This document shows positions 5,833-56,103 of a DNA stretch of 64,000 bases, piece after piece. Source of the stretch: Polyangiales bacterium. GTDB taxonomy: Bacteria; Myxococcota_A; Polyangia; Polyangiales; Polyangiaceae. The translations under genes were made by a program, and so were the position numbers. The DNA lies in contig JBBRLQ010000009.1 in the NCBI GenBank assembly GCA_038231275.1, forward strand, positions 160,001 to 224,000, read 5' to 3'. Below the pieces are notes generated by a model, which worked only from the letters and a program-made list of their open reading frames with translations, searched no databases and was not told the origin of the DNA. How positions within the stretch are numbered: position 1 is the first letter of the stretch; the number at the start of each line of letters is the position of its first letter.

Positions 5833-5847
5833 ACGAAATCGCACAGA

Positions 5848-5886
5848 CCGGCGCGCGCGGCGGGCGGGTCTCGCCGCGCGCGTCGG
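5848..5886. terminator. GC-rich hairpin between convergent genes
   Basis: CGCGCGCGGCG (5852-5862) pairs with CGCCGCGCGCG (5872-5882), just after the recA stop; no U-tract. Confidence 0.45.
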
Positions 5887-5981: not shown

Positions 5982-8001
5982 TTAAGGGGCCGCAGCCGCA
6001 TAGCCGTCCTGCCACTGACTACGGATGACGAACGGCTGAGCGAGCTGGGCCACGTTTCCGAGGAACAGTTCGATGCTCTGGTAGCTCGCCCCGTTGAAGT
6101 CCACCCAAGTGGCCGCCGCGACGGTCGCAGTTGCCAGCGCCCCCGTCGCGTCGAACGCGAGTGTGCCAGCGCCGACGTCGACGTTCGTCCCCGGCGTGCC
6201 ACCCTTGAGGCAGCCACCATCAACGAGCAGGTGATAGTCCCACGCGTCAGGCCCCGTCTTCGCGAAGTAGGCGTCGACCGCGCAGGCTCCGCCGAGAGAG
6301 TCGTAGACCAGCATCGACGTCCGGAAATTCGACGAAGCCTCGGGCGAGGCGGGGTCGAACGGGAGAGCGGGCACGGAAGCGTCCGCGTCGAGGTTTCCGC
6401 CGATGGCCATCACCGAGGTCGGCCGCGGAGGAGAAAACGCGACGTGGGCGTTCTGCGTTACGGAGACTCCGGCGCAGGCGAGGGTCGACGGCGGCGGCGC
6501 GAGCTCCGTCACGCTGCGGAAGCGCAGGGTCAGCGGTTAGAGCGGGGTCGGCGCCAGGGAAGCTCCTCGTGAGAGGGACGAGGATCGCCGTGCTCGACAG
6601 CATGCCGTCACTGTCGAAACGGAGCTCACCGCTACCAAGCGCGACCAATGCGGCCGACGTCGCGCCAAGAACTCCGGAGCCAGCCGCCTCCACGGCGTAG
6701 CTCCACCGGTGGAGGTCCGTCTTGGCGAACGTGATGGCGACCCAAAGCCCGGTGGTGAGTGGATCGTACGCTCGGACGGTCGTGCCCGCCGGAGCGTCCG
6801 CGTCGAGGTTTCCGTCGACGACGATGCCGACGGTGGCGTGCACCGCCCCCGGCACCCCGATCATCGACGGGGACGTGAACTGCGTGACGCCAGCCCGCCC
6901 GGTCCCTCTGAAGGCAATCGGGGCTCCGAAGCTCAGCGCGATGGGCTGATCGGGCAAAGCGTCGACGAACGACACCCGCGTGGCCGTGTCGACCCAGACC
7001 GTGTTGAGCGCCCCCCCGTACGTGAACGTGAGGCTGCCGCTGCCGACCTCCACGTTGGTGCCTGGTGTGCCGCCCACGAGGCGAGCGCCGTCGATCAGCG
7101 CGTGGTAGTCCCAGGCACCGCAGGCCGTCCTCACGAAGTAGATGCCGATGGGTTGTGCGACGCCTTGCGTGTCACGCACCGTGGTCGTCACCCCGGCGTT
7201 CGAGGTGCTGGAAGGATCGCGCGGATCCCATGCGCGGTAGAGCATCCACGACCACGCGTCGAGGTTGCCTGCGATGTCGACGCGCGCGCCCGCGGGCGGT
7301 GAAGGGGCCGGTGACACGTGCTGGTGCGTGATGTGGCCGTCTTGCGCCAATGCGAGCACGACGGAAACGGCGTCCTTCTGGGCCGACGTGTAGGAACCGA
7401 GCCCGAAGTGAACCCCGATCGCCTGGCGCGACGTGGCGCTTCGGAAGCTAATCGCGATCGGCGCGACGTTCGCGACGTTGACGAGCGCACCGGTCGCGTC
7501 GAACGCGAGCGTGCCGCTCCCCACCTCGGCTTGGATGCGCGAAGCTCCGTCTTCGACGTCCGCACCCTCGGTGAGGGCGTGGTAGTCCCACGTGGCGGGA
7601 CCGGTCTTGGCGAAGTAGAAGACGAGCGGGTGGGCGGCGCCGTTCTCGTCCGCGATATCCACAGACACCGAATAGCCGGAGGTCTCCGCCGGTATGTCTG
7701 GATCGAACGGACGGGACGACACGGGTCGACGCGCATCGAGGTTCACCGCCATCGACACCTTCTCCGTGGCCATCGACACGAAAGAGCCGCCGCTGTGTTC
7801 GGGGAGCACGGGCGGAGCGCCGCGCGGAGAAGGCCCGCGCGCAGAGTCGCTCGAGATCGAGGGCCCGCCGGGTGCGCGCCCTCCGTCGTGATCGGGCGGG
7901 GAGGTCACGACTTCGGGCGGCGCGCCGGTGGGAGCGGGGCTGAGGCTGCATCCGGCGAGAAGAGCGGACAGGAGGAGCACTCGAGCAGCGGGGGAAATCA
8001 C
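5982..8001 (-). pseudogene. Lipoprotein with four tandem FlgE D2 (FlaE)-like domains, frameshifted at 6539 (real or sequencing error)
   Basis: Lipobox LLAGC; four repeats of NLDA...(FDP)...D..G......YFxKT...W.Y...G.G.L.F...G.L; ORFs 6247..8022 and 5982..6512 join in frame if base 6539 is removed. Confidence 0.8.
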
Positions 8002-8013
8002 GGCGCCATGCTG

Positions 8014-8030
8014 AGCAAGCACCGTGCCCT
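8014..8030 (-). promoter_or_regulatory. Putative sigma54 promoter of the FlgE-D2 repeat gene
   Basis: Minus strand AGGGCACGGTGCTTGCT, GG-N10-GC; GTG 8001 is 14 nt after the GC. Confidence 0.6.
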
Positions 8031-8160: not shown

Positions 8161-8397
8161 TCACTCCACCGCGACCGCTTCCGCCTCCTTGCAGAGCAGC
8201 GTCGCCGCGCTGTAGCTCGGGTTCTCGATGCACTCCTTTCTCCACAAAACCTCGTACCCGTGGGGGCACGCGCTCGCCGCGCCTGCGACGGTGAATGGCT
8301 CGATGTGCACCGGCGCGTACGCCGGGCTGGCGGCCGGTCGGTCGTTGCAGGCGTAGAGCAACGCGAGCGCCGCCAAGACGGCGAATCGGAACGTCAT
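8161..8397 (-). CDS. Small lipoprotein
   Basis: MTFRFAVLAALALLYAC lipobox; three further Cys. Confidence 0.6.
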   Translation of the reverse strand: MTFRFAVLAALALLYACNDRPAASPAYAPVHIEPFTVAGAASACPHGYEVLWRKECIENPSYSAATLLCKEAEAVAVE

Positions 8398-8507: not shown

Positions 8508-9065
8508 ATGTATCCTGCCCTCGTGCTGAGCCTCCGTCACACCTGCCGAACGTCGCGCGTGCTCGCCCACGCATTCGTCCTCGCCTGCGCCGCGTGGGCG
8601 TGCACGGCGTGCGCGAAGAAGCCCACGATGCACCTGAACCACGCCGAGATCAGCGGCTTTCAGGTGGCGACGTTCCCGCCGAGCGTCGTCATGACCGTGG
8701 TCGTCGACGTGTTCAACCCCAACGGCTACGACGTCGCCATTCGCGCGATGCGCGGCCAGGTCATCATGGCGGACAAATACACGATCCCCCTGGATTACCG
8801 GCCCCCCGGCGACGGCCTCTGGCTCCCCGCCGGCAGGACGACGCAAGTAAGCACGCCCGTCGCGATCCCGGTGAACCTCGCCATCGCGCTCGTGGGCGAG
8901 GCCTTCGCGTCGCCGACGATCTCGTATCGCCTCGTCGGCAAGGCCGACGTCACCGGCACGCGCTCATTCCAGATCGAGAAGGACGACTACGCGCTCGACG
9001 AGCCGGGCACCGTCACGCGCGAGCAAATCCAGGCGATCATCCCGAACACGCTGCGCCCCTACTGA
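8508..9065 (+). CDS. LEA type 2 / WHy domain lipoprotein
   Basis: Signal ending CTAC; VDVFNPNGYDV (NPN motif); beta-rich with YRLVG; start may be GTG 8523. Confidence 0.75.
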   Translation: MYPALVLSLRHTCRTSRVLAHAFVLACAAWACTACAKKPTMHLNHAEISGFQVATFPPSVVMTVVVDVFNPNGYDVAIRAMRGQVIMADKYTIPLDYRPPGDGLWLPAGRTTQVSTPVAIPVNLAIALVGEAFASPTISYRLVGKADVTGTRSFQIEKDDYALDEPGTVTREQIQAIIPNTLRPY

Positions 9066-9089: not shown

Positions 9090-10364
9090 TCAGGCGGTCG
9101 GCCTCTCCGCTCGGAGGAAGTAGGTCTCCATGGTGCCCTTCCCCTTCACGGCCACCTCTCCACGCGCCGTGAGCTCGAAGCGGTCGCCGAGGCGTTCGCG
9201 GACCTCGCGGGTGACCTGAATTTCCTGCGGGACGCCGCTCGACTCCATGCGGCTCGCGGTGTTCACCGTGTCGCCCCAGAGATCGTAGATGAACTTCCGC
9301 TTGCCGATGACGCCGGCGACCACGGGACCGCAATGGACGCCGATCCGAAGCTTCAACGTGTACCCGCGCGCCTGGTCGAGGGCCTCGATGGCCGCGCGCA
9401 TGCCGAGCGCCATTCGCGCGATCGCCGCGACGTGATCCTCCTTCGGCTCCGGCAGACCCGCGGCCACCATGTAACAGTCACCGATGGTCTTGATCTTCTC
9501 GAGCCCGAGCTCCTCCGCGAGGCCGTCGAAGGCGGAGAAGATCTCGTCGAGCACTTTGACGAGCTCATCAGGCGTGAGCGTCTGGCTCAGCTCGGTGAAG
9601 CCGACGAGATCGGCGAAGAGGACCGTGACGTCGGGAAACGCGTCGGCGATCGTACCGTGATGGTCCTTGAGGCGCGCGGAGATCGCCGCCGGCAAGACGT
9701 TGAGCAGCAGACGCTCCGACCGCTCGTGCTCGACCGCGAGCTTGGCCTCCGCGCGCGACGTGTTCAGCGACGAGTTGTGCGCGACGAAGAGGAGCGTGCC
9801 GAATACCGCCAGCTGCGAGCCGATCTCGATGGTGGTGCTGACTTCGTCGCTCAGCCGGATCGTGAGCGACGGTGGGACGGCGACGACACGCGCGACGACC
9901 GCGCACGCGATGCTGAGCGCCGCCAAGCTCCACTTGGAGCGAGAGTCGGCGTCGAACAAGAGGAAGCCTGCCGTCCCCGCGACGAAGAAGTAGTAGTGAA
10001 AGCCGCAGTCGACCATGACCGCGGAGGCGACGAGGGCGACGAGGTTGACCGCGACGATCAGCGTGGCGCGCGCGGTGCGCTGGTGGCCGCTCCGCGCGAC
10101 GAACGGAACGGCCATCACGAAGGGGAGCGCGACGAGGTTCACGATCGCGAGGCCGCGAAAGCGCTCGCCCCCGGCGAGGAAGGCCGCCGCGAAGCCCGCG
10201 AAGCTTAGCACCGCCATCGCCGCGCTCTGGTTCGTCAGGCGGCGGCGGCGCCCCTCCGCGGACGCCGTGTCCCCGATGCCAAACGACGAAATCCGCTCCC
10301 ACGCCGACACGTGTGCTCTACGACCATCTGCACGCTCCTGGATCCGAGGTGATTCGTGTCTCAT
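9090..10364 (-). CDS. Membrane-bound class III adenylate cyclase
   Basis: About 6 TM, SERLLLNVLP, VLFADLVGFT, EKIKTIGDCY (Lys), YDLWGDTVNTASRMES (Asp), VKGKG; ATGA overlap with upstream stop. Confidence 0.92.
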   Translation of the reverse strand: MRHESPRIQERADGRRAHVSAWERISSFGIGDTASAEGRRRRLTNQSAAMAVLSFAGFAAAFLAGGERFRGLAIVNLVALPFVMAVPFVARSGHQRTARATLIVAVNLVALVASAVMVDCGFHYYFFVAGTAGFLLFDADSRSKWSLAALSIACAVVARVVAVPPSLTIRLSDEVSTTIEIGSQLAVFGTLLFVAHNSSLNTSRAEAKLAVEHERSERLLLNVLPAAISARLKDHHGTIADAFPDVTVLFADLVGFTELSQTLTPDELVKVLDEIFSAFDGLAEELGLEKIKTIGDCYMVAAGLPEPKEDHVAAIARMALGMRAAIEALDQARGYTLKLRIGVHCGPVVAGVIGKRKFIYDLWGDTVNTASRMESSGVPQEIQVTREVRERLGDRFELTARGEVAVKGKGTMETYFLRAERPTA

Positions 10365-11398
10365 GGAAGCTTGGTCCGCGCGCACCGGAAGCCGATCTGG
10401 GTCGAGCTTCGTGTTCCCAGGCGTGAGTCTGCCGAGCGGTTTTCGATGTCGAGCGGCCGGCCGACGAAGCCGCCGCCGCGCACTGGCACGGAGCTCGTGG
10501 TCCGGGGGTCGCCGGCGTAGTCGTCGGGCAGCGTCGACGGCGGGGTGCCGACGCGCGGCGTCCCCCACGCCCACTCCCTCAGCCCGCCCGTGAGATCATG
10601 GACAGCGTCCCTCGAGACGTCGCCGGGCGCCGCGGGGAAGGGCTTGGGGAAGCCGCAGCTGTTGCTGTCGGTGAGGCCCACGCCAACGATCGCGTCGGCG
10701 CACGTGGAAGGCGGCGTGTCGCCCGACGAGTACTTGCGGTGCTGCCCGCGTCCGGACGCGAGCCAGTACCACTCGACCTCGGTGAGCAGGCGCATCTTGC
10801 GGAATGCGCAGATCGCGGCGGCCTGCGCGAACGTGACGCAATTAATCGGAAGGGTCGCGTCGCCGACGAGGTAGGTCGGTGCGTCGCCTGCCTCTTGCGC
10901 GAGCGTGGAGCTCCGCTCGCATTTCGGCGTGTCACGGTACTCGGCCGTCGCGACGGACGGATCGTCGGCCGGATACCACCGCATGATGTTCGCGTACGGG
11001 CCGCCAGGGTCGAGGGTGCACGTCTGGCCCGGGCACGGGCTCGGCGCGGACGCGTCGAGCCACGCGCGAAACTGGCCGACTGTCACTTCGTGAACGTCGA
11101 CGAAGAGATCGTGGGAGAGGCGCGTCGCGGAGATCGTCGCGTCGACGTCGTCCCAGACCATCGTGACGGGGCCGGCGGTGGGAACGAAGATCGTGTCGGC
11201 CGGGCCTCCTGTTTCGGGACCGTCTGCGTCGCGCGCACCGTCGCCCTCGCCCGCCTCGTGGCTCGCGGCGTCGGAGTCGTCGTTCGCGGCGTCGGAAGCG
11301 CCTCCGTCGACGGCGCCGCCGGGGCGGGCGCCGAAGTCCTGAACGACGAAGCATCCGCACGCGACCGCCCCGAGGCCGAGCCATTCGAGTCGGATCAT
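10361..11398 (-). CDS. FGE-sulfatase (SUMF1-like, CLec fold) domain lipoprotein
   Basis: Lipobox AVACGC; FVDVHEVTVGQF, PINCVTF, RLLTEVEW, DLTGGLREW, VRGGG, IGFRCA. Confidence 0.85.
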   Translation of the reverse strand: MIRLEWLGLGAVACGCFVVQDFGARPGGAVDGGASDAANDDSDAASHEAGEGDGARDADGPETGGPADTIFVPTAGPVTMVWDDVDATISATRLSHDLFVDVHEVTVGQFRAWLDASAPSPCPGQTCTLDPGGPYANIMRWYPADDPSVATAEYRDTPKCERSSTLAQEAGDAPTYLVGDATLPINCVTFAQAAAICAFRKMRLLTEVEWYWLASGRGQHRKYSSGDTPPSTCADAIVGVGLTDSNSCGFPKPFPAAPGDVSRDAVHDLTGGLREWAWGTPRVGTPPSTLPDDYAGDPRTTSSVPVRGGGFVGRPLDIENRSADSRLGTRSSTQIGFRCARTKLP

Positions 11399-26061: not shown

Positions 26062-26826
26062 ATGCGTCGTTCTTGGCCGGATGCGTCAGAGGCGTTGGGG
26101 TTCGAGGGGCAGGTGCTCACGCGGGGCACGGCGCTCGTCGACTTTCGGCTTCCCGTTCCCGAGGGCGTGTTTCAGGCGGGAGAGGACAGCGTGGTCTTCG
26201 TCGCACCAGCGATATCGTCGCTCCCCGACGAGCCTGCGCGCGCGAGTCGGCCGTCCTTCCCCGGCGCGCATTGGCTGACGCCGCCGCCGGAGCTCTCGGA
26301 GGAGATGCGCGCGCGCTCGTCGCGCCCTGATCCGCGCGAGATCGACGACGACGAGCCCACGCTCCCCGTCATCCCGCTCTCCCGTCGCCGCGGCACGGGC
26401 GACGCGCTCGCGTCCGCGGGCGAGGAGCTCGTCGGGCGCACGCCGGCGGCGCGTGTCGCCCGTGTCGGCGTGGTGGTCTCGCTGATCTTCGCGGGCCTCG
26501 CCGCCCACGCGCTCGGGAACGCGCACCCCGCGGTCACGGCATCGGCTGTGGCGACACCCGACGCGAACGCGCACACTCCGGTCGCGGCCCTCGTCACGCG
26601 GACCTCGAAGACCGGGACCGACTCGGCCCACGTCGCCGCCGCGCCCGCGCCGGTGGTCATCTCCGGTGCGCCCGTATGGATCGTGCTCTCGCCGTCGCGT
26701 GGGGTGACCTCGACGACCAAGCGGCCGGGCGAGCCGCTCGCGCCGCTCGTGCCAGGCGTTCCCGAGACCCTCGGTCTCCCGCGTCCCGCGCCGCCCCCGC
26801 CGCGCTCGGAATTCGCGCGTCTTTGA
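26062..26826 (+). CDS. Hypothetical single-TM protein
   Basis: ORF fills gap; TM VGVVVSLIFAGLAA; low-complexity flanks. Confidence 0.45.
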   Translation: MRRSWPDASEALGFEGQVLTRGTALVDFRLPVPEGVFQAGEDSVVFVAPAISSLPDEPARASRPSFPGAHWLTPPPELSEEMRARSSRPDPREIDDDEPTLPVIPLSRRRGTGDALASAGEELVGRTPAARVARVGVVVSLIFAGLAAHALGNAHPAVTASAVATPDANAHTPVAALVTRTSKTGTDSAHVAAAPAPVVISGAPVWIVLSPSRGVTSTTKRPGEPLAPLVPGVPETLGLPRPAPPPPRSEFARL

Positions 26827-26854
26827 CGGCGCCTCGCGCTATTCTCTTGCCAGC

Positions 26855-28516
<1,662 letters not shown>

Positions 28517-33056: not shown

Positions 33057-36000
33057 TTACTCCACGATCGACGCCCACGAGTCGATCCTCGTCTTCATCT
33101 TTGGCGAGGGGAGGTTGATTTGCAGGCTGCCGCCCAGCTGGTTGGGCTGCTTGGTGGTGTTCTTGGCGGTAGCCTTCGTCGAGGCCGACGCCACGATCGA
33201 GTAGCTCGCCTGGCTGAGGTTCGAGAGGCCGGTGTACGTACCTCCCGTGAACGTGTCGTTCGCGGCGCTGGCGTCCGAGCAGGGGGGCGTCGCCTGAAGC
33301 GCGACGCCGGTGATCACATGGCCCGTGAGCCCGACGTCCGGGAGGTCGGCGGCCGGGATCGTGAAGGGCGACGCCGGGGTCTTGATCCATTTGCCGTTGT
33401 CGGCGCCGCCGCAGCCGACGTTGTTGCCGATGGAGCACGACGCAGGGGCCGCGAAGTCCATGCCCCAGATCTTCCCAGCGCCGGTCTGGCAGACGTTGCC
33501 CGCCGAAGGAGCGAACGTCGCGAAGTACGCGGCGCCGTCGAACACAGTCATCGGGCCCGTGACGCGCTCGCCGTCCGCCCACGGCAGGTACCAGTTCACG
33601 TACGACTGGCCGGTGCCGACCGTCTCGCGGAGCGAGTAGACGAAGTTGAAGGACGCGCGGTAGTCGTCCTTGTCGTTGTCTTTGCCCGGCATGAACACGG
33701 TCGTCGAGAACGTGTCCTGATCGCCGGTGGCCACGTGCATGACGAGGTTGCCCGCGCTGTCGAGCGACGTCACCGGGAGAACCGAGATCGGCTGGCCGAT
33801 GGCCGCCATTTGGTTGGCGTTGCTCGGCTTGCTGCCGGTCGTCGGCGCCGGGAGGTTGGCCGCCGAGAGCGCGTCCGTGTTGAACGCGTCGAAGAAGATC
33901 TCGCCGATCCACAACGCCGGGTTGTTGTTGGAGACGTCGAAGCGCCAGATCGTGCCGTCGATGTCGCCGACGTAGAACTTCGTCGCCACCGCGCCGACCT
34001 GCGCGGGGTAGACGACCGGTGTGCCGGTCATCGGCGAGTCGAGCGGCGTGTTGGTCTGACGGCTCTTGGCGGCGATGATGCCCGGGATGTCGTTGAGCGT
34101 GGGCGTGCCGGCGGTGTAGCGGCCGAAGGTGCGGATGATCTCGCCGGTGTCGAGGCGCACGATGGTCACCGAGCGTCCCGCAACGCCGCCGCCGATGCCC
34201 GCCCCGCCGCACGAGACGGAGCTCCATTCACGCACCTTGGTGCGCGCGGGAAAGAGCGAGCCCGCCGGGAGCTTGTTGGTCGCTTTGGTCGCGCGCGTGC
34301 AAGTACCGGTCGGCGAGCCGCTCACGCCGCCAGGGAGGATCGCGACGCCAACCTCGTGCACCACCGAGCTCGAGTCGGCGATGGCGAGGGTCGTGATCGC
34401 CGGCGTCGCCGAGTGGCTCCCGAAGAGCTGCACCTCGTTGGAGGCGACGGGGAGCTTGGCGAGCTGCCAGAGGAAGTGCGGGCCCTTGCCGCTCGTGTAC
34501 ACGGTGTTGCGCGCCGGCACCGGGCTATCGGCGGGCGCGGGCGGCAAGGTCGACGTCGACGCGTTCCAGTGCCCCGTTCCGAGTTGCGCGACGAGCGGGT
34601 CGGAGATGTCGAGGGCGTAGTATCCGGTGCCGGCCGAGCCCATGCCCGCGACGAGCGCGGTGTGCCACGGCGTGACCAACGACGTGTCGGTGCGGTCGAA
34701 GACGACGTCCTTCGCGATCGGCGCGCCGTCGAGCAACGTCGATCCGCCGCCCGGATAGTTCGACTTCAACGCAGGCAGGACGGCAGGCGGGATGAACGAC
34801 CACATCTCGTTGTTCGTCGGCGCGTTCGAGGTCGTGCACGTGGCCGGGTTCGTCCCGGCGACGTTGATGGCCGTCGCTCCGTTCGTGTACGAGAAGCCCT
34901 TCGGGGGCGGCTCGCTCGTCGCGTCGAACGCGTGGAGGAGGCCGTCGATCGTCACCGCATAGAGCACCTGCGGCCGATTCTGGTTGTTCGTCGCGAACGC
35001 GCGATAGGAATCGTCGCGCGCTTGGGCCGACGGCGGCGGCACCACGACGGGGTTCGCGTGGAGGATCGCGCCGAGCGCGCTGAAGTTGTTGGCATTGCCC
35101 TTCGCGCGCGAGAAAAAGCCGGCGAAGTCGTACGTGCCCGAGGTCGGGCTCGGCGTCACCGCTTGGCCGAGCGCGAAGCCGAGCACGGCCTTCTCGCACT
35201 CTACCGCAGAGAGCTGCCCGAACGCGGTGCCGATCCATGTGAACGCGGGGCAGGGGCTGTTGATGCCAAGGTAGGTCGGAGTGAGCGTGCTCATGAGCGC
35301 GGTGAGGTCGGCGCCTATCTCGAAGCCCTGTCGTGCGGTCGCGCCGTCGACGTCGCTCGGGATGTACTGGCGCATCGTCATCGTCGAATCGATGGGCGTG
35401 CCTTGATCCTGAACGGTGAGCACGTTGCGCGTCGTAGAGTTCGAGTCCACGTTGATGCGGAAGTCGTCGCCCGCCGAGCAGTCGATCGGCTGGACGACGG
35501 CCGGCGGCGACTTCGACGTGTCGCACTTGGTCCGGATGCGCTGGACGCTGCCCGACCAGGGCCACGCGTTGGAGTTCTTGGAGTTTCCGGAACCCGGCGC
35601 CGGGTTCGTCGTGTCGAACGACGCAAGGTACTGCGACGAGACGGCGATCGAGCTCGCGAGCGACGAGAGCACCGGGCTGAACGAAGGCACCGTCTTCGAC
35701 GAAGCCTTGTCGGTGATCTGGCCGAGGATCGCGGAGAAGACCTTGCTCAAGTCCTGCCCGTTGTCGACGAAGTATGCGCCGACGCCGGGGGTGCCCGACG
35801 GCGTCCCGGCGATCGCGATCTTCTGGAGCATGCAGCAGGCTTCGAGCGGGCCGCCGACCGGCGGATCGAGGCCCGGAACGTTCGCGGTGTTGCAGATCAG
35901 GTCGCCTGTGGGCGTGAACTTCGGGGGCGCGCCGGGAGCGACGATCAGGTTGCTGTCGCATTTCGTGTTGAGCGGAAGCCCCCCGGCCGGGGACAGATCC

Positions 36001-37427
36001 GTCGACATCGCGAAGCCGATGACGAAGGTGGTCACGGTCGGGAAGGTGCCACCCGGACCGCCGGCGGCGAGGTCCTTGCTGATGTCCTCGGAGCGGTCGT
36101 TGTTGCTCGTCAGGGTGAAGGGGCATTTGCCGACGTTCGGCGCCGTCTGGGTCTGGCACGAGCGCTCGAGGTCGAGGTTCGGCGTGCCGTCCGTCATGAG
36201 GACGATGTACTGATCGCGGCAGCCAACGACGCCGGCGCCGTTGGCGCTGCTCGAGTACGGATCGCTCCGATACGGGCCGTTGGGATCGTTGAAGAAGTAA
36301 TTGCGCGCGTCCCACAGCATGCCCTGGATCGGCGTGGCGCCGTACGGACGGGTCGCGAGCATGACGCGCTGCACGTAGTCGTTCGTCGCCTCGACGTCGG
36401 TGAGCGGCGCCGCCGGATCGGGGAAGGTGACCATGCGCCCTTCCCACATCGGCGCGGCCGGGTTGCGCGCGCCGACCTCGAAGTCGGCGAGCGTTGCGCA
36501 CTGATCGGGTCGCCCCTGGCACTGGCCGCCTGCGCCGGGCCACGGACAGGCGCCGGCCAGCCACGTGACGCCGTCCCACGCCGGGAAGTAGCTGAAGTTG
36601 CCGTCGAAGAAATTCGCCGGGAGGTTGTTGACCGGCGTCGACGTGTCCATGCCGGTGCCGGCCTTGGTGTCTGCGTCGAACGTCATGAGCCCGAAGCGGG
36701 CGAGATCGCGCGCCGAGTCGATGACGCCGTCCTGGATCTGCGTCATCGCAGCCAGATCCGGGTTGCACGACTGCGAGAGCGGCGCGGTCTTCGAGGCCGT
36801 CGAGAAGATCTTGGACGCGTCGAACACCGCGAGCGCGTCGGCGCCGTACTCATCGGCGTCGTTCTTCGTCTGCCGGTGCGAGCCGAAGCCGGCTGCGCCG
36901 ACGCCGGTGCCGGACCCGCCATTGTCGGAGAGGTACCATGGGCCGACGGTGCAGTAGTTGCCGGCGCTGTCTTGGCTGACCGGGCGGTGGTAGGGCACCG
37001 TGTAGCCGTAGTCGTAGGGCTTCGCCCCGTTGACGGTGTACTCGTCGCGGAACGTCGGTCCCGAGCGATCCTGCGCCATGCAGAAATACCCGTTCGAGAA
37101 CTGACCGGTCATCGTCTGGAGGATCGTGCCCCAGCGATTGGCGCAGGTTGCCGTGAACGGGCCGGTGCCCGGGGTGAGGACCGAACATTTCGAGGGCAGT
37201 CCGGGGCAGTGCACGGGGTCGGCATTTCCGCCGCTCGACTCCGGATCGGTCCCGTCGATCATCGCCTCCATCGAGCCCGAGTTGTCGAGCAGGAGCATGA
37301 CGTTCGGGAGCGGCGGCGTCGGCGTCGTCTGCGTCTTCTTCGCGAGCGCGTGCCCGGCCACTGCCGAAGCGGCGACGCAGACGCCGATGGCCGAAACCAC
37401 ACGGAGGAATCGGGCCGGATTACGCAT
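33057..37427 (-). CDS. pilY1: PilY1-like type IV pilus adhesin (vWA + beta-propeller)
   Basis: Sec signal; MIDAS LLDNSGSM...GATP...MTDG; propeller motifs LGAILHANP, DGLLHAF, EMWSFIPP, LDGAP, YYALDISDP, YVGDIDGTIWRFD; SD GGAGG. Confidence 0.88.
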   Translation of the reverse strand: MRNPARFLRVVSAIGVCVAASAVAGHALAKKTQTTPTPPLPNVMLLLDNSGSMEAMIDGTDPESSGGNADPVHCPGLPSKCSVLTPGTGPFTATCANRWGTILQTMTGQFSNGYFCMAQDRSGPTFRDEYTVNGAKPYDYGYTVPYHRPVSQDSAGNYCTVGPWYLSDNGGSGTGVGAAGFGSHRQTKNDADEYGADALAVFDASKIFSTASKTAPLSQSCNPDLAAMTQIQDGVIDSARDLARFGLMTFDADTKAGTGMDTSTPVNNLPANFFDGNFSYFPAWDGVTWLAGACPWPGAGGQCQGRPDQCATLADFEVGARNPAAPMWEGRMVTFPDPAAPLTDVEATNDYVQRVMLATRPYGATPIQGMLWDARNYFFNDPNGPYRSDPYSSSANGAGVVGCRDQYIVLMTDGTPNLDLERSCQTQTAPNVGKCPFTLTSNNDRSEDISKDLAAGGPGGTFPTVTTFVIGFAMSTDLSPAGGLPLNTKCDSNLIVAPGAPPKFTPTGDLICNTANVPGLDPPVGGPLEACCMLQKIAIAGTPSGTPGVGAYFVDNGQDLSKVFSAILGQITDKASSKTVPSFSPVLSSLASSIAVSSQYLASFDTTNPAPGSGNSKNSNAWPWSGSVQRIRTKCDTSKSPPAVVQPIDCSAGDDFRINVDSNSTTRNVLTVQDQGTPIDSTMTMRQYIPSDVDGATARQGFEIGADLTALMSTLTPTYLGINSPCPAFTWIGTAFGQLSAVECEKAVLGFALGQAVTPSPTSGTYDFAGFFSRAKGNANNFSALGAILHANPVVVPPPSAQARDDSYRAFATNNQNRPQVLYAVTIDGLLHAFDATSEPPPKGFSYTNGATAINVAGTNPATCTTSNAPTNNEMWSFIPPAVLPALKSNYPGGGSTLLDGAPIAKDVVFDRTDTSLVTPWHTALVAGMGSAGTGYYALDISDPLVAQLGTGHWNASTSTLPPAPADSPVPARNTVYTSGKGPHFLWQLAKLPVASNEVQLFGSHSATPAITTLAIADSSSVVHEVGVAILPGGVSGSPTGTCTRATKATNKLPAGSLFPARTKVREWSSVSCGGAGIGGGVAGRSVTIVRLDTGEIIRTFGRYTAGTPTLNDIPGIIAAKSRQTNTPLDSPMTGTPVVYPAQVGAVATKFYVGDIDGTIWRFDVSNNNPALWIGEIFFDAFNTDALSAANLPAPTTGSKPSNANQMAAIGQPISVLPVTSLDSAGNLVMHVATGDQDTFSTTVFMPGKDNDKDDYRASFNFVYSLRETVGTGQSYVNWYLPWADGERVTGPMTVFDGAAYFATFAPSAGNVCQTGAGKIWGMDFAAPASCSIGNNVGCGGADNGKWIKTPASPFTIPAADLPDVGLTGHVITGVALQATPPCSDASAANDTFTGGTYTGLSNLSQASYSIVASASTKATAKNTTKQPNQLGGSLQINLPSPKMKTRIDSWASIVE

Positions 37428-37463
37428 GACCAATTCCTCCAATGACGATGGGACGAGGCGCGA

Positions 37464-38222
37464 TCACTGTGGGCATGGGATCGGTCCTCCGGTGACCCTT
37501 CCGCGCCCCGTTTCGAGGCTGGAGGACCCGTAGATTTGCAGGTTGTTGGCGAGGCTCTGCGGCGGCATGACCTGCCCGTACGTCGTCACGGAGAACGAGA
37601 CCGGACACAGGCTGAGAGTCGTCTGGCTCTGCCCGATGTTCGCGTTGCCGGCGAGCGGCTCGTAAAATTGCGTGTCGGTGATCTCCACGCTGAAGTTGCC
37701 CTCGAGCTGCACCGCGCCGGTCGCGCCGGGGCCGGCGAACGACGGGAATGCTTGGGCGGCGGTGCGGAGCGGTGCCGTCAGCCCCACCCACCCCTGCGAG
37801 AGATCGCTCATGCGCAGGATTTTGCACGCGCGCGAGCTGGCGCTGGCCGTCACCGGGACCGCCTCGAGCGACGCGCAGTGGTTGCGCGGGAACGTGTCGT
37901 CGTAGTCGCCGACCGATTTGGTGGAGAGAAGCCCGGGCGTCCGCATCATCGCCTCGATCGCGATGGCGTAGTCCGGCCCCAACTTCGCCGAGGCCGCGAC
38001 CATGCCGTACTCGGCGAGGTAGTGCGTCTGCAGGGCTTGCCGCTCGTAGCCGGCGCTCTTGATCTCGGTCGACGCGCTGATCAGCGCGAAGGCGCCGAGC
38101 GACACGAGCACGCCGATCGTCATCGACACGATGAAGACGACCGCGCCGCCCTGCCGCGCGCGCCGGCGTGCGCGACGCTTCGCGACGACGAGAGAGGAGC
38201 TCTGGTGCGTTTGCGTCGTCAT
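37464..38222 (-). CDS. pilX: PilX-like minor pilin
   Basis: Basic leader, G/AVVFIVSM without Glu5, YLAEYG; ATGA overlap. Confidence 0.75.
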   Translation of the reverse strand: MTTQTHQSSSLVVAKRRARRRARQGGAVVFIVSMTIGVLVSLGAFALISASTEIKSAGYERQALQTHYLAEYGMVAASAKLGPDYAIAIEAMMRTPGLLSTKSVGDYDDTFPRNHCASLEAVPVTASASSRACKILRMSDLSQGWVGLTAPLRTAAQAFPSFAGPGATGAVQLEGNFSVEITDTQFYEPLAGNANIGQSQTTLSLCPVSFSVTTYGQVMPPQSLANNLQIYGSSSLETGRGRVTGGPIPCPQ

Positions 38223-39598
38223 GGGTAGGCCGCCCCCGCGAGGTTGTTGAGCGCCACCTCGGTGATGGTCTCGCGGACGCGCGCGAACGCCAAGCACGGA
38301 GCCGCCGAGGGGCTGGTGCAGTACCGGTACATGTACTTGTAGTCGGGCGGCGCGTAGCTGGGCGGGCTCACGACGCTCAAGCGATCGGCGATCGCCGTGC
38401 GCGTCGCGAGACGGACGCGAACCGAACGAATGCGCTGCGGCCCCGTCGCACCTGCGCTGGGGGAGCCGCCGTAGAGGGCGTTGTTCCCCGATATGTCGTC
38501 GAACGGGTAGGTGCTCTGCACGCGCACCGGGTTCGGGACCGCCGTGCCGCTCCCCGCCGTGCTGTCGACGGTGAACGCGAACTTGAGATCCACCGCATAC
38601 TCGGCGACCAGATCGGGCGTCCCCACCTCCGTGCCGGCCGAGTCGAGGTAGTAGCGATAGAGGTCGAAGCGAGCAGGGTCGGCCACCGTCGCGAGCGGCG
38701 CGTACGCCACGTCAGGCGGAGCCAGCTTGTACCGCACGGTCAGCGCCGGGCTGACCGTCGAACCTGCGAGGAACGCCGACTGCCCGCCGTTGTTCGTGCT
38801 CGCGTTGGGCGTGACGAGCGTGGGAGTGGAGCCGAGATCCACGAACGGCACGCCCGCGGTGACGCCCGCGGCGCATGCGTCGATGTACTGCACGCGCCCC
38901 TGGAGATCCTGGATGCGCACGACGAAGCGCTTCGTCGCGACGGGCACGAAATTGCGCACCATCATGTCGTTCGGGCCGCTCGCTCCGCCCGTCTTCAGGA
39001 CGCGCCAGGAGGGGGGATTGTCGAGCGCGAGCAAGAGCTTCGGCCCGCCGCACCCGGAGATCGCCCCGAGCTGCTGGATCGAGTACCCATCGACCGTGTT
39101 CATGTTGCCCGTGATGTCGATCGCGTCCGGGCTCAGGTTGTTGTTGTTCGAGTAGGGTTTGCTGTCGTCGGTGCCGGCCGTCGTCCCCGCAGGGAAGCCC
39201 AGCGCGATGTTGGCCTTCTTCGCCGAGCCGCCGACGAAGAGGCGGATCCCGGCCATCCGCTGGACGATGAACGGCGCGCCGCCCAGGTTGTAGTTGGAGA
39301 CGATCCGCGGATCGCCGAGGATGTTTGGGCTCGTCATGAACGCCGCGCGCCCCAGGTCGGCACGGAGTCGATCGATCGCGGTGCGCACCGAAAACTGCGC
39401 CTGCGAGGCGCGCATGTCCTCGTGGAAGCTGTTCGTCGCCTCTTTCGAGAGACCCACGACCGCGATTCCGACGAGCAGCCCGCCGACGAGCGCGACGGCG
39501 AGCTCGATGAGCGTGAAGCCGCCGGCGCGGCGACGTGCGCGTGCGCGTGCGAGGACGGATCGGGGGATGGAGGGAGGCGTCGTCATTCTCTCCGTCAT
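38219..39598 (-). CDS. pilW: PilW-like minor pilin
   Basis: G/FTLIELAVAL prepilin site; LRADLGRAAF; LVAEYAVDLKFAF; IRSVRVRL. Confidence 0.82.
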   Translation of the reverse strand: MTERMTTPPSIPRSVLARARARRRAGGFTLIELAVALVGGLLVGIAVVGLSKEATNSFHEDMRASQAQFSVRTAIDRLRADLGRAAFMTSPNILGDPRIVSNYNLGGAPFIVQRMAGIRLFVGGSAKKANIALGFPAGTTAGTDDSKPYSNNNNLSPDAIDITGNMNTVDGYSIQQLGAISGCGGPKLLLALDNPPSWRVLKTGGASGPNDMMVRNFVPVATKRFVVRIQDLQGRVQYIDACAAGVTAGVPFVDLGSTPTLVTPNASTNNGGQSAFLAGSTVSPALTVRYKLAPPDVAYAPLATVADPARFDLYRYYLDSAGTEVGTPDLVAEYAVDLKFAFTVDSTAGSGTAVPNPVRVQSTYPFDDISGNNALYGGSPSAGATGPQRIRSVRVRLATRTAIADRLSVVSPPSYAPPDYKYMYRYCTSPSAAPCLAFARVRETITEVALNNLAGAAYP

Positions 39599-40278
39599 TC
39601 TCCGAGCGGGGTGAGGCGGAGCATCGTCGAGGCGTAAACGAAGTGGTAGACCGCCGGGCCGCCGGTCGCGCCGTCGGGGCCGTTCGTCGCGCCGAGCGCC
39701 GCAGTGTCGCAGAAGCCGTTGCCGCCCGAGTAGGGGGCCGTAGCGCTCTGCGTGAGCTGACGCGGCCAATAGACGCGAACCTCCGCGCGGACGAGATCGG
39801 CAGCCCCGCCGTCGGCCGACGCGCTGTCGAGCCAGATGTTGACGCAAAACGACGCGTCCCCGTACTTGTCCTGCGCGAGGTCGCGCCCGAGAATGTCGAA
39901 CGCGGGGCAGAGTCCGTCGGCGTTGGAGCCCGTCGCCGTCGCCGGACACAGCGTCGTGGGCATCGCCCACTTGCCGTAGTAGGTGCTCGTCAGCTTGATG
40001 TAGTTGGTCTGGCCGAGCGGCGTCGCGACGCTGTTCTGCGTCCACATCATCGCGTCGCGCCGAAGCCGCTCCAGCCAGTCGCGCGCGATGGCGTTCGCCA
40101 TGTCGAGCTTTCGCGCGTCGGAGTTGCCCTGAATCGAGGCGCGCTGCATCGCGATGACGCTCGCCGCGCCGACCGCGAAGACGGTCATCGCCATGAGCAC
40201 CTCGATCGCGGTGTACCCGCGCGCGCGGCGTCGGCTGCGGATCGCGAGGGTCTTCGAGGAGGGTGTAGGCATCGTCAT
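39595..40278 (-). CDS. pilV: PilV-like minor pilin
   Basis: RG/YTAIEVLMAMTVFAVG; IARDWLERLR; VRVYW. Confidence 0.8.
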   Translation of the reverse strand: MTMPTPSSKTLAIRSRRRARGYTAIEVLMAMTVFAVGAASVIAMQRASIQGNSDARKLDMANAIARDWLERLRRDAMMWTQNSVATPLGQTNYIKLTSTYYGKWAMPTTLCPATATGSNADGLCPAFDILGRDLAQDKYGDASFCVNIWLDSASADGGAADLVRAEVRVYWPRQLTQSATAPYSGGNGFCDTAALGATNGPDGATGGPAVYHFVYASTMLRLTPLGE

Positions 40279-40283
40279 CAGGT

Positions 40284-41018
40284 TTAGTTCGAGTACAGGC
40301 GCGCAACGCCGGCCGGCGGGACGAGCACGTGACGCTTCAAGCCGATGCCGCTCGTGCATCCGCCGCCGCGCCGCATGCAGACGTCGACGTCGATGAACGT
40401 GTTGCCGACCGCGAATGCCGGGATCGCCGAGCCGGTCGACACGTACGTCCGGCCGGCGGGGGTGAAGCAGACCCACGCGATCGACACGCCGGAGCCGCCG
40501 GCCGGGTTCCCGGTGCGATCCACGTACGCGACGTCGATCGACGATTGGAAATCGAGCGTCACGTCGAGGTTCAGGTTGTAGTCGAGGGCGTCGAGCGGGA
40601 GGGCGTTGCTGGTCGGCGGCGGAGATGCCGGATCCCACGACGGGGTGAGGCAGCTGGCGATCGGGGTGCGGTTGGTCGTGTCCGACGTCGGGGCACTGCC
40701 GTTGGTCGTCGCGTTGGCGGTGACCGCCTCGAAGACGCGGAACGTCCCACGATCGGCGGCGCCCGACGCCGTCATCATCACCGCGACCGCGCCGCCGCGA
40801 CCGATCGCCCGAAGACGCGCGCCCCGCAGGATCTGCGCGACCTGCATCGAGTTGTTGTAGGCGTGCCGATCGTCGCGCGCGCGGATCATCGACGGGATCG
40901 CGAGCGCGGCGAGCACGGAAACGACGATCACGACGACCATCAGCTCGATGAGCGTGAACCCTCGCGCCGCGCCGCGCGCGGTCCTTATCGAAGCACTTCG
41001 TTCAGGAAGGGATCGCAC
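40284..41018 (-). CDS. fimU: FimT/FimU-like minor pilin
   Basis: RG/FTLIELMVVVIVVSVLAALAIP; LRGARLRAI; CFTPAG. Confidence 0.8.
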   Translation of the reverse strand: MRSLPERSASIRTARGAARGFTLIELMVVVIVVSVLAALAIPSMIRARDDRHAYNNSMQVAQILRGARLRAIGRGGAVAVMMTASGAADRGTFRVFEAVTANATTNGSAPTSDTTNRTPIASCLTPSWDPASPPPTSNALPLDALDYNLNLDVTLDFQSSIDVAYVDRTGNPAGGSGVSIAWVCFTPAGRTYVSTGSAIPAFAVGNTFIDVDVCMRRGGGCTSGIGLKRHVLVPPAGVARLYSN

Positions 41019-41031
41019 CGTGTTCCTTTTT

Positions 41032-41048
41032 AGCAAGGCGCGTGCCCC
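41032..41048 (-). promoter_or_regulatory. Putative sigma54 promoter of the minor pilin operon
   Basis: Minus strand GGGGCACGCGCCTTGCT, GG-N10-GC; GTG 41018 is 15 nt after the GC. Confidence 0.62.
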
Positions 41049-41220
41049 CTGGATGAGGCGCCTCGCGTGGGAAATTCTAGCGATTTTCTCCCTACGAGGG
41101 CCAAGCAAAGTCGAAACGATTGCCGGGCTATGAAAAAGCTGCGAGGCGCCTCGATGTGGGTGCGGCGGCCGTGGTGGCGACGCGGTAGACGCATCACTCC
41201 TCGCGGAGTACACGGTGGGA

Positions 41221-42357
41221 ATGACGCGATTCTTTCCGTCGATCGTTCTCGCCGCGGCGCTTCCTCTTCTTGTTACCGCGTGCCCGTCGAAGGACTCCGC
41301 GAAGAAGGATGAGCCGCCGCCTCCGCCGCCGCCGGCGAGCGCGGGGCTCAGCCCTGGCGCGTGCACGGGGGGCGGCGGCGAGGTGAAGGATCCGGTGAGC
41401 ACGGCGTTCTTCCCGCGCGCGGCCGGCGGCTTCTGCCTCGACCCGAACGGCGAGACGAAGACGTACGGCGAGAACGCGAAGCACGCGAAGGAAGAGGTCT
41501 GCACCACGCTCTTCGACGGCGAGTGCGAGATCTACATGCGCTACCGGCTCACGCGCGTGGTGGCGCTCCGCTACGTCGACGGCGCCGGCAAGGGCGCGAC
41601 CGTCGACGTCATCCTCTCGACGTACGCCGACGTCCCCGGCGCGTACGCCATGTTCACCAAGCGCGTCATCGCCGACAGCGATCCGGCGGAGGACTCGGCG
41701 CCGAAGCCGATCGCCGCGGGCGGCGCGGCGGTGCTCGGTACCGGGCGCGCATACCTGTGGCGCGGGCAGTACATCGCCGAGCTCCAGTACAACAACGAGC
41801 AGGAGTCGCCGGAGCAGCTCACCAAGTCGAGCGGCGCAGCGCTCCCGATCCTCGCGAAGGAGGTTGGCGCGAGGCTCCCTGGCGCGCTCGACAAGCCGCC
41901 GTCGGCGAAGGCGCTGCCCGAGGTCGGTCTCGTGAGCGCGCAGGCGATGCAGCTCGTCGAGAAAGAGCTGCTGGGCCTGAAGGGCCTCGGCGCCGGCGCG
42001 ATGGGTTACTACAAGGACGGCGACAAGCGCTTCCGTGAGGTCGCGTTCGTGAACGCCGACGCCGAGCAGGCGAAGGACGGAATGAAGCTGCTGGCGAAGC
42101 GGCCCGAGGCACTGCCCGTCGCGGGGGTCGGCGAGGACGCGTCGCTCGTCGTGATCAAGCAAGGCGAGACGAAGCTCGAGTACCTCTTCGCGCGTAAGGG
42201 GCCGCTGCTCGCGGGCGTCGGCGACGACGACTATGCGGCGCAGAAGAAGCTCTCGAAGGACGAGAAGATCGCCAAGCTCAAGGCGTGGCTCGCCGGCAGC
42301 GCGGCTCCTGCAGGTTCGGCGCCCGCACCTTCCGCTTCGGCGTCCGCGAAGAAGTAG
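41221..42357 (+). CDS. Lipoprotein of unknown function
   Basis: LVTAC lipobox; LFDGECEIY, GAYAMFT, WRGQYIAEL. Confidence 0.75.
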   Translation: MTRFFPSIVLAAALPLLVTACPSKDSAKKDEPPPPPPPASAGLSPGACTGGGGEVKDPVSTAFFPRAAGGFCLDPNGETKTYGENAKHAKEEVCTTLFDGECEIYMRYRLTRVVALRYVDGAGKGATVDVILSTYADVPGAYAMFTKRVIADSDPAEDSAPKPIAAGGAAVLGTGRAYLWRGQYIAELQYNNEQESPEQLTKSSGAALPILAKEVGARLPGALDKPPSAKALPEVGLVSAQAMQLVEKELLGLKGLGAGAMGYYKDGDKRFREVAFVNADAEQAKDGMKLLAKRPEALPVAGVGEDASLVVIKQGETKLEYLFARKGPLLAGVGDDDYAAQKKLSKDEKIAKLKAWLAGSAAPAGSAPAPSASASAKK

Positions 42358-50138: not shown

Positions 50139-51362
50139 TCAAGAGGCCCCGGCGAGCGCGCCCTCCAGATCGCGCCACAGGTCTTCCGCGGCCTCGATCC
50201 CTACGCTCAGGCGCAACAGGCCGTCGGTGACGTCCGCGAGCATGCGCGCCTCCTTCGACATGGTCGAGTGGGTGGTCGACGCGGGGTGCACGAGGAGGGT
50301 CCGGACATCCCCGAGGCTGACGGCGTGGGTCGCGACGCGCACCCCCTCGAGAACACGCTTGCCACGATCGAGCGCCGCGTCGCCGCCGAGATCGAACGAG
50401 ACGAGCGACCCAAACGCGTGCATCTGCGCGCGCGCGCGGACGTGCCCTTCGTGGCCTTCGAGCGACGGGTGGTACACGCGCGCGATCTTCGGGTGCGCGA
50501 CGAGGCGCGACGCGAGCGTGGCGGCGGTCGCGCACGCCTGCTGCTGGCGGAGCGCGAACGTGCGGAGACCGCGGTCGACGAGGAACGCGTTGAACGGCGC
50601 GAGCACGCCGCCGAAGCCCTTCACGACGAGGTCACGCGCGACGTCCACGAGCTCCCTGCGCCCCGCGAGCGCGCCGCCGATCGCGTCGCCGTGTCCGCCC
50701 AGCGCCTTCGTCATCGAGTGCACGACCAGATCGACGCCGAGCGCGAGCGGCGTCTGCGCGAACGGCGTCGCGAAGGTGTTGTCGGCGATCGTGAAGAGGC
50801 CGTGCTCCTTCGCGAGCGCCACGATCGCCCCGACGTCGGTGACCGCCAGCACCGGGTTCGACGGCGTCTCGAGGTAGAGCACGCGCGTCTCTTTGCGGAT
50901 CGCCGCGGCGGTCGCGACGAGATCGCGCGCGTCGACGAAGGTGGTCGTCACACCAAACCGCGGCAAGCGCTCGCGAAGGAGCCGCGCGCTCTCGGCGTAC
51001 ATGGATCGCGGCGCGACGACATGATCGCCGCTCTGGCAGATCGACATGAGCGCGCCGCTGATCGCCGCCATCCCGCTCGCGGTGACCGCCGCCGCCTCCG
51101 CCCCCTCGAGCGCGGCGATCTTCTTCTCGAGCGCGTCGATGTTGGGGTTGCCCCACCGCCCGTAAATGTACGCGTCGTTCTCGCGCCGGAACGCGCCCGC
51201 CGCCTCGTCGGCGCTCTCGAACCCGAACGCCGACGAGAGCGTGATCGGCAAATCGAGCGCGCCGTGACGCGCGAGGTCCTCGCCGGCGTGGACGCACGTG
51301 GTCGCGAGCTGGGCGGCGCGCGCGGCGAGGACAGCCGCGTAGGGAGAGTGGGGGTCGATCAT
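50139..51362 (-). CDS. Cys/Met metabolism PLP enzyme (methionine gamma-lyase/MetZ-like)
   Basis: YGRWGNP, ASGMAAI, LETPSNP, DNTFATP, HSMTK (PLP Lys), AVSLG, HPASTTH, RLSVGIE. Confidence 0.9.
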   Translation of the reverse strand: MIDPHSPYAAVLAARAAQLATTCVHAGEDLARHGALDLPITLSSAFGFESADEAAGAFRRENDAYIYGRWGNPNIDALEKKIAALEGAEAAAVTASGMAAISGALMSICQSGDHVVAPRSMYAESARLLRERLPRFGVTTTFVDARDLVATAAAIRKETRVLYLETPSNPVLAVTDVGAIVALAKEHGLFTIADNTFATPFAQTPLALGVDLVVHSMTKALGGHGDAIGGALAGRRELVDVARDLVVKGFGGVLAPFNAFLVDRGLRTFALRQQQACATAATLASRLVAHPKIARVYHPSLEGHEGHVRARAQMHAFGSLVSFDLGGDAALDRGKRVLEGVRVATHAVSLGDVRTLLVHPASTTHSTMSKEARMLADVTDGLLRLSVGIEAAEDLWRDLEGALAGAS

Positions 51363-51444
51363 CGCCGCGAAGTATGGGGGACGTCGCCGCCCGCGAAAAG
51401 TGCGGGTTTGCACCGAGGTCGGGCAGAGGCTACATCCCCAGGCG

Positions 51445-56043: not shown

Positions 56044-56103
56044 GAGGACGGCACGATACCACAGCGACTCCGATCCGACGGGCGCGTGGTAACTTGAAGA
56101 GGC

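Follow-up and report, generated by a model that had tools for sequence, protein, structure and literature searches.

The hook, rod and filament proteins of the bacterial flagellum are regarded as a closed family that is defined by terminal helices and by type III export. The D0 helices are needed for this export and for polymerization, and the D2 domain of the hook protein FlgE makes lateral D2-D2 contacts in solved hooks; the FlgE of Treponema denticola forms lysinoalanine-cross-linked D2 dimers. The usual description of myxobacteria is that they glide and lack flagella. We analyzed a gene built of the D2 domain in a 64,000-nucleotide stretch of DNA from a Polyangiales bacterium (GenBank assembly GCA_038231275.1, contig JBBRLQ010000009.1, positions 160,001 to 224,000; the whole stretch is hereafter the window). 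The gene lies on the minus strand (8022-5982) of what we read as chromosomal DNA, and a predicted lipoprotein signal and a tether are followed in it by four D2 modules, with a frame change inside the third. The window protein is not a hook protein, though it is built of a hook domain. We lean toward reading it as a lipid-anchored envelope protein exported by Sec and Lol, whose four D2 modules would derive from flgE and whose role would be structural, spacer or adhesive, the copy in the window being frame-interrupted.

The initial annotation had taken 5982..8030 as one gene frame, but the list of open reading frames (ORFs) and a three-frame translation give two minus-strand ORFs in different frames, with the break at ~6540. 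ORF-A (8022-6247, 591 aa) starts with GTG; ORF-B, open from 6536 and with 6512 as its first GTG, ends with TAA at 5984-5982. Module coordinates were taken from the envelopes of our own hidden Markov model (HMM) and from a BLASTP span, and the gene reads from its 5′ end as follows:

7948..8022, minus strand: start codon (GTG 8022, alternative GTG 8001) and predicted lipoprotein signal peptide with lipobox L-A-G-C and Cys25, from the sequence.
7798..7947, minus strand: Pro/Ser/Gly-rich tether of ~55 residues (residues 26 to about 75-80), from the sequence and predicted disorder.
7357..7797, minus strand: FlgE_D2 module 1 (ORF-A residues 76-222; best PF07559 stretch 94-230; own-HMM envelope; predicted local distance difference test, pLDDT, ~80-97).
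6859..7329, minus strand: FlgE_D2 module 2 (ORF-A residues 232-388; Pfam and own-HMM envelope).
6429..6849, minus strand: FlgE_D2 module 3 (Pfam and own HMM), split by the frame change, with frame A to 6541 and frame B from 6536.
6530..6541, minus strand: site of the +1 frame change (three-frame translation; switch in G+C at third codon positions, GC3; frame-B TAA at 6539-6537).
6247..6540, minus strand: out-of-frame tail of ORF-A, 97 codons and a stop, non-coding by composition.
5982..6428, minus strand: FlgE_D2 module 4 (ORF-B residues 37-181; module span 6428-5994), short C-terminus and stop codon (TAA 5984-5982).

In Pfam, PF07559 (FlgE_D2; cut-off 22.7 bits) matched three stretches of ORF-A (E = 2.5e-35, 122.5 bits) and one stretch of ORF-B (E = 1e-21, 78.4 bits), and Flg_bb_rod, LlgE_F_G_D1 and Flg_bbr_C gave no match in either ORF up to E = 10. 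The NCBIfam FlgE models match the ORFs by the D2 part alone, with ≤76 bits against cut-offs of 365-801 (best score: 75.9 bits against a cut-off of 400), and TIGR03506 (FlgEFG subfamily) scored 24.5 and 34.6 bits against a cut-off of 70.25. The remnant of D1 consists of the two strands flanking D2, which are kept in each repeat, and nothing more; the gene product ends 5 residues past the QDGY motif. Protein-level identity between repeats is 28-42%, module 3 being the most diverged (28-32% identity to the other modules) and missing ~16 residues after its NLDADAP motif. A 22-nt identity (6378-6399 = 6793-6814) lies in the codons for G-N-L-D-A-D-A, the conserved beginning of modules 3 and 4, and we take the duplication of modules to be old because the repeats are otherwise so dissimilar.

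A sequence search of PDB chains matched FlgE alone, aligned at residues ~146-317. The AlphaFold2 (AF2) model of module 4, built from a 37-row alignment, has a mean pLDDT of 88.4, and all 25 of its Foldseek matches in the PDB at E ≤ 1e-3 are FlgE (query-normalized template modeling score, TM-score, 0.62-0.67; E from 5e-10 to 7e-8). In the AF2 model of the 494-residue frame-A part, a signal helix (ORF-A residues 11-23) and a disordered tether (pLDDT < 50 over residues 24-41 and 43-80) precede three confident beta-domains; FlgE chains account for 20 of the 23 Foldseek matches in the PDB at E ≤ 1e-3, the other three being listed with probability ≤ 0.28. The linkers at residues 233-242 and 389-395 of ORF-A are of low confidence and the predicted TM-score (pTM) is 0.44; no fixed packing between the domains is predicted, and the modules would be arranged as beads on a string.

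The N-terminus of ORF-A reads RVLLLSALLAGC, with the Cys at residue 25. Judged by eye and by regular expression, it has a positive n-region, a hydrophobic h-region, and a lipobox of the form [LVI][ASTVI][GAS]C (R...VLLLSALLAGC), as expected of a lipoprotein; GTG 8001 as start would shorten the n-region. The lipobox Cys is shared by 14 of 18 aligned family members, and the Ser at +2 after the Cys was read by what we take to be the Lol sorting rules.

Much of what the initial annotation had proposed from the letters alone is borne out by these results: an LLAGC lipobox with a Pro/Ser stalk (Cys25 in the sequence, disorder in the AF2 model), four repeats at positions close to those found here (7797-7357, 7329-6859, 6849 to ~6429, and 6428-5994), a 22-nt identity, which is real, the equation of the repeats with FlgE D2 (PF07559, sequence matches to solved structures, and the fold), and the absence of the terminal D0 helices. 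It had also foreseen four FlgE_D2 matches and none for Flg_bb_rod or Flg_bbr_C in an HMM search, and a likeness to FlgE in AlphaFold and Foldseek; the former were obtained up to E = 10, and the module 4 model matched FlgE alone (25/25).

Six features were tested for membership in FlgE, and D2 is the only one present. A lipoprotein signal takes the place of the N-terminal D0 helix (PF00460), the C-terminal D0 helix (PF06429) and D1 (PF22692) are absent, the curated whole-protein score is not reached, and the gene does not lie in a flagellar cluster. Established knowledge of the pathway implies that a protein with neither D0 helices nor D1 would undergo no flagellar type III export and no hook polymerization. 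FlgE models are the sole family matches, and one could ask whether the gene codes for a genuine but unusual flagellar hook protein, or is a misassembled piece of one; this is hardly credible, given that the N-terminal D0 helix, D1 and the C-terminal D0 helix are missing up to E = 10, that ≤76 bits in NCBIfam stand against cut-offs of ≥365, that the N-terminus is of the Sec/lipobox type with four tandem D2 against one in FlgE, and that the same design recurs in independent sequences.

The two ORFs are joined by composition and by alignment. Both coding parts, frame A as far as 6541 and frame B from 6536 on, have a GC3 of 0.83, against 0.59 in the tail (6540-6250), and the signal passes from frame A to frame B between ~6580 and 6540; by codon position, G+C is 0.87/0.64/0.59 in the ORF-A tail vs. 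0.67/0.57/0.83 in the coding parts. In alignment, the initial 36 residues of ORF-B match the module 2 tail, and the relatives are single ORFs that share the QDG-type C-terminus of ORF-B. Because the start of ORF-B is collinear with the module 2 tail, we read one gene broken by a 1-nt change and not two designed genes: the interval is a single four-module gene, broken by a +1 frame change within ~10 nt of 6540. Two genes by design, i.e., a three-module lipoprotein and a one-module cytoplasmic protein from GTG 6512, would agree with the two ORFs of the list, but this is very improbable, since ORF-B begins in the middle of a module and lacks a signal peptide, the composition of the frame-A tail is not that of coding sequence, and the relatives are undivided. 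Programmed frameshifting was rejected as well; the sequence has no slippery motif, and single-ORF relatives would argue against it.

Whether the frame change belongs to the organism bears on what the gene can still make. Among 23 minus-strand frame switches in the window, that at ~6540 is the only one with an upstream frame of >300 nt without a stop, and because this junction is unique, the assembly is not generally full of insertions and deletions. This would favor a decaying pseudogene, in which the frameshift is real and the four-module protein is no longer made, leaving no more than a lipoprotein of 2.7 modules that ends in 97 nonsense residues. Other observations go the same way: the frame change stands in the deposited contig, the protein library has exactly the 591-aa frame-A ORF (as a singleton, on a contig of 250,198 bp), and module 3 is already the most diverged (28-32%), with its 16-residue deletion. 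Module 4, however, is intact past the break (Pfam E = 1e-21, pLDDT 88, GC3 0.83 as upstream, no stop in 184 codons), so that any inactivation would be very recent, or the change is a 1-nt assembly error. The window copy is thus either a very recent pseudogene or truncated form, or else the product of a 1-nt assembly error, and we regard the decaying pseudogene as possible but doubtful.

The design of the window protein recurs elsewhere. An exhaustive phmmer search over 1.84 billion cluster representatives (50% identity) returned 498 matches at E ≤ 1e-3, of which 206 reached E ≤ 1e-10 and 8 reached E ≤ 1e-30; P0004, the best match apart from the gene itself, is 39% identical, 570 aa long, and carries three D2. 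A Pfam scan took in 126 of the 149 best non-self matches (of 498 in total), and the other 23 all carry the FlgE C-terminal motif (by regular expression). FlgE_D2 without Flg_bb_rod, D1 or Flg_bbr_C was found in 89 of these 126 relatives, a count in which short single-D2 entries may be flgE fragments, and at least one flagellar D0/D1 family was found in the remaining 37. At least two D2 copies are present in 43 of the 89 D2-only relatives (own HMM; the phmmer query favors multi-D2 proteins), a lipobox-like N-terminus in 43 (crude regular expression), and both in 21; a few of the 89 add TSP_3, FlgD_ig or DUF7151. The traits of the family are a lipobox, a low-complexity tether, one to four FlgE_D2, no D0 or D1, and an end just past QDG, as in P0004, P0005, P0014, and L008, a protein with a lipobox and two D2 from a Polyangiaceae metagenome-assembled genome (MAG).

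Modules are bracketed by Cys in most D2-only relatives: six columns of alignment A2 (241, 450, 494, 691, 722, and 910) have a Cys in 7-14 of the 18 rows. Such a Cys immediately on either side of each D2 points to a disulfide that staples the neighboring N- and C-terminal strands together, and such bracketing pairs, read from the alignment, are as expected of extracytoplasmic proteins.

No NCBIfam model for the D2-only family was found among 15 members scanned, and the literature, searched at the level of listings and abstracts, yielded no description of D2-only lipoproteins. Here the initial annotation was right in part: it had spoken of an undescribed architecture and of a candidate new system in the window, and the former agrees with the literature search, but the architecture recurs in dozens of cluster representatives and in L008. 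Because of this recurrence among representatives clustered at 50% identity, the D2-only tandem lipoproteins appear to be an uncharacterized recurrent family, neither a one-off nor a system confined to the window. What is new here is an undescribed but recurrent re-use of the known D2 domain. Searches of other collections added little: a word-index homology search with the window gene found itself and FlgE fragments, nothing more; a protein-atlas search found FlaE-D2 clusters, all below threshold (≤0.83); phages and plasmids gave no match to the gene (tblastn); and viral structure models gave nothing at E ≤ 1e-3 (Foldseek).

Other arrangements of the same domain came up among the relatives. D0-less cores that keep D1, with D1+D2 in ~340-370 aa, include P0043, P0046, P0062, P0066, P0069, P0070 and others; some of the D0-less cores are possibly fragments, yet their lengths recur. 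Four proteins combine DUF7151 with D1 and D2 (P0044, P0067, P0077, P0094), and P0031 has two D1-D2-D1 units. In P0053, P0130, and P0051, D2 modules are joined by thrombospondin-type-3 or acidic double-disulfide repeats; these linkers are weakly similar to those of the MYXO-CTERM cohesion protein MtsC, and the three proteins close with a hydrophobic segment and then Arg-rich residues, reminiscent of a C-terminal sorting signal, with both likenesses below curated cut-offs.

We scanned GTDB species genomes with our own pattern NLD...YF...WxYH, which matches window modules 1, 2, and 4. The scan gave 73 loci, all from genomes other than that of the window; 65 have a D2 ORF and 8 are chance matches. 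Among the 65, complete FlgE (with the C-terminal motif) accounts for 63, one is the D2-only lipoprotein L008, and one is cut by a contig end, i.e., the pattern picked mostly true FlgE over D2-only genes (63 vs. 1). None of the 73 loci has two or three pattern matches as in the window gene. By label, 43 of the 63 FlgE loci belong to Myxococcota (mostly Polyangiaceae), 8 each to Bdellovibrionota and 'delta proteobacterium', 2 to Thermodesulfobacteriota, and one each to Verrucomicrobiota and Pseudomonadota.

The flgE gene of Labilithrix luteola DSM 27648 (locus L019) stands among fliG, fliH, fliI, fliJ, flgD, fliL, fliN, fliO, fliP, flhB, flhA, and flhF. L. luteola is a cultured myxobacterium, and its flagellar cluster looks complete (L019:3871-19726; NZ_CP012333.1, ~1.377-1.393 Mb); full-length FlgE is found in a further 42 Myxococcota-labeled genomes, mostly Polyangiaceae MAGs. 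The initial annotation had implied a hook domain in a flagellum-free organism, which becomes doubtful when the nearest relatives include complete FlgE of Polyangia and other Myxococcota and L. luteola has a full cluster. Judging by these genes, the Polyangia lineage is not flagellum-free. A passing statement that some uncultured Myxococcota MAGs encode flagellar assembly has been made (10.1101/2021.07.06.451402), and nothing further on flagella of Polyangia was found in the passages on Myxococcota of PMC12248157 or in the 'flagell' passages of PMC11821767.

Modules 2 and 4 share 45-51% of residues with the FlgE D2 of the pattern-scan loci, vs. ≤42% with their sibling repeats. Module 2 has 46% identity to its D2 counterpart in the FlgE of a Polyangiaceae MAG (L005), and module 4 aligns with residues 154-310 of a 428-aa Myxococcales FlgE (50% identity over 157 aa, E = 6e-45, BLASTP). 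The domain tree has little resolution (14 of 96 inner branches are starred, with no starred set holding a window repeat) and mixes D2-only domains with myxobacterial FlgE D2; P0004, P0007, and P0098 form a clade with three FlgE (Shimodaira-Hasegawa-like approximate likelihood ratio test, SH-aLRT, 98). A single clade of all 63 D2-only domains was rejected (approximately unbiased, AU, test: P = 0.0037, log-likelihood difference 82.8, with the usual long-branch caveat), which indicates that the D2-only proteins lack a single shared origin. The best reading of these comparisons is that the modules were taken over from flgE of flagellated Polyangia or other Myxococcota and were duplicated long ago.

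For an envelope protein of this kind, Sec would export the product, Lgt, LspA, and Lnt would lipidate the lipobox Cys, and Lol would probably pass the lipoprotein to the outer membrane. The flexible ~55-residue tether is predicted to hold the four rigid, independently folding beta-modules in the periplasm or at the surface; they would hang there as a beads-on-a-string array, and D2 modules may associate with each other. We infer that the role is most likely structural, spacer or adhesive, and non-enzymatic, because there is no catalytic family match and no conserved neighborhood. The adhesin, stalk or decoy roles offered by the initial annotation are conjectural.

The two-copy model of module 4 bears on such association. 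It has an ipSAE (interface score from predicted aligned errors) of 0.43 (median of three runs), vs. 0.00 for the best of 3 controls. Among proteins solved as same-chain pairs, 20 of 30 reach the mark for this score; among those solved as single chains, 1 of 23 does. These counts hold no more than roughly here because our own alignment was used. Contact agreement between runs was at least 4%, partner pLDDT was at least 78, and one of the three runs gave 0.00. The predicted interface comprises ORF-B residues 65-76, 83-88, and 168-180, the strands of which are those leading into D1 in FlgE. The model thus lends weak support to self-association of D2 modules, via the face that abuts D1 in FlgE.

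A predicted D2-D2 contact also raises the question of whether the partner is the flagellum itself. The D2 array might dock on the D2 lattice of its own hook as a collar, brake or anchor, or serve as a decoy for phages or predators that recognize hook D2. Full flagellar clusters in related Polyangia, repeats that keep 45-51% identity to Polyangia FlgE D2, the lateral D2-D2 contacts of solved hooks, and, weakly, the dimer model (0.43 vs. 0.00 for the best control) would all suit it. It is nevertheless quite unlikely: no flagellar gene lies near the window gene or L008, phage records hold no match, and the predicted dimer interface is made, in our interpretation, of the D1-facing strands and not of the outer D2-D2 surface of the hook. 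A broader proposal, that tandem-D2 lipoproteins are a Sec-exported offshoot of the hook that still uses D2-D2 recognition, either as an envelope or surface array or as a hook-docked collar, brake or decoy, we consider unlikely.

Several observations weigh against a Sec/Lol-exported envelope protein of four D2 modules. The frameshift may make the window copy non-functional, and the window protein lacks all six of the bracketing Cys columns. The neighborhoods of the window gene and of L008 share nothing, and no conserved neighborhood points to a function. The dimer score is barely at the mark, with one failed run and low contact agreement, and the pass itself may stem from likeness to known structures because D2 also touches D2 in solved hooks and in the dimer of the Treponema domain.

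As the initial annotation had stated, there are no flagellar genes in the window: the Pfam scan of its 45 other ORFs found no flagellar family. The neighbors of the gene are recA (convergent), a small lipoprotein, a LEA_2 lipoprotein, and an adenylate cyclase. L008 is flanked by a Ser/Thr kinase and a cytochrome-c-like protein, with no flagellar genes nearby. Two features adjoin the gene:

5840..5859, minus strand: terminator-like hairpin 3′ of the gene, before convergent recA (a consensus match alone; 2 found vs. 1.2 expected in the region).
8161-8397, minus strand: small ORF of ~78 aa with a lipobox of its own (LLYAC) and four further Cys, 138 nt upstream of the gene, with no Pfam match.

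The small lipoprotein ORF (8161-8397) may be co-transcribed with the gene. The LEA_2-domain lipoprotein (8508-9065, plus strand) is divergent from it, and the window has two proteins with an FGE-sulfatase domain (10361-11398, minus strand; 51343-52581, plus strand). Farther away, at 33057-41531 (minus strand), a 1468-aa protein with a weak match to the PilY1 beta-propeller adjoins an ORF with an N-terminal methylation (pilin-like) motif, and the two probably belong to a cluster for a type IV pilus tip or for minor pilins. FHA-sigma54-activator and FHA-GGDEF proteins (26708-28516 and 56098-57033, both plus strand) and four Ser/Thr kinases in 64 kb make up a repertoire typical of myxobacteria. 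The window is 68-73% G+C and also carries comM; content of this kind would suit a member of the Myxococcota but is no proof of one.

Taken alone, the window copy is of lower value, being frameshifted and having no informative neighbors. The family shows the outer hook domain persisting without the terminal helices, in tandem, Sec-routed and lipid-anchored form as predicted, in dozens of sequence clusters, and the search brought to attention complete flagellar clusters in Polyangia, a lineage known for gliding, including the cultured L. luteola. Should D2-D2 recognition have been kept, the family might supply a new envelope scaffold or a factor that interacts with the hook; should it not, the family would be a clean case of domain co-option. 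If the offshoot proposal were true, a structural domain of the type III-exported axial proteins would have passed on more than one occasion into a second, lipid-anchored surface system, in a phylum long regarded as non-flagellated.

Among known systems, the window protein is closest to FlgE (Salmonella: PDB 1WLG, 3A69, 6JZT; Polyangia and other Myxococcota: L055, L005, L019), with which it shares D2 and the two connecting strands (FlgE residues ~154-310). It differs from FlgE in having neither D0 nor D1, a predicted Sec/lipobox route in place of type III export, four D2 against one, and no flagellar operon. The D2 of Treponema denticola FlgE (PDB 6NDW, 6NDX) has the same fold and sets a precedent for direct D2-D2 contacts, but belongs to a genuine hook subunit, unlike the window protein. 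The D0-less cores (D1-D2 proteins, DUF7151+D1+D2, P0031) are likewise hook cores without terminal helices, but keep D1 (PF22692), whereas the window protein does not. With the D2-only family the window protein shares the lipobox, the tether, and FlgE_D2 without D0 or D1, and it departs from that family in its four modules, its frameshift, and the absence of bracketing Cys.

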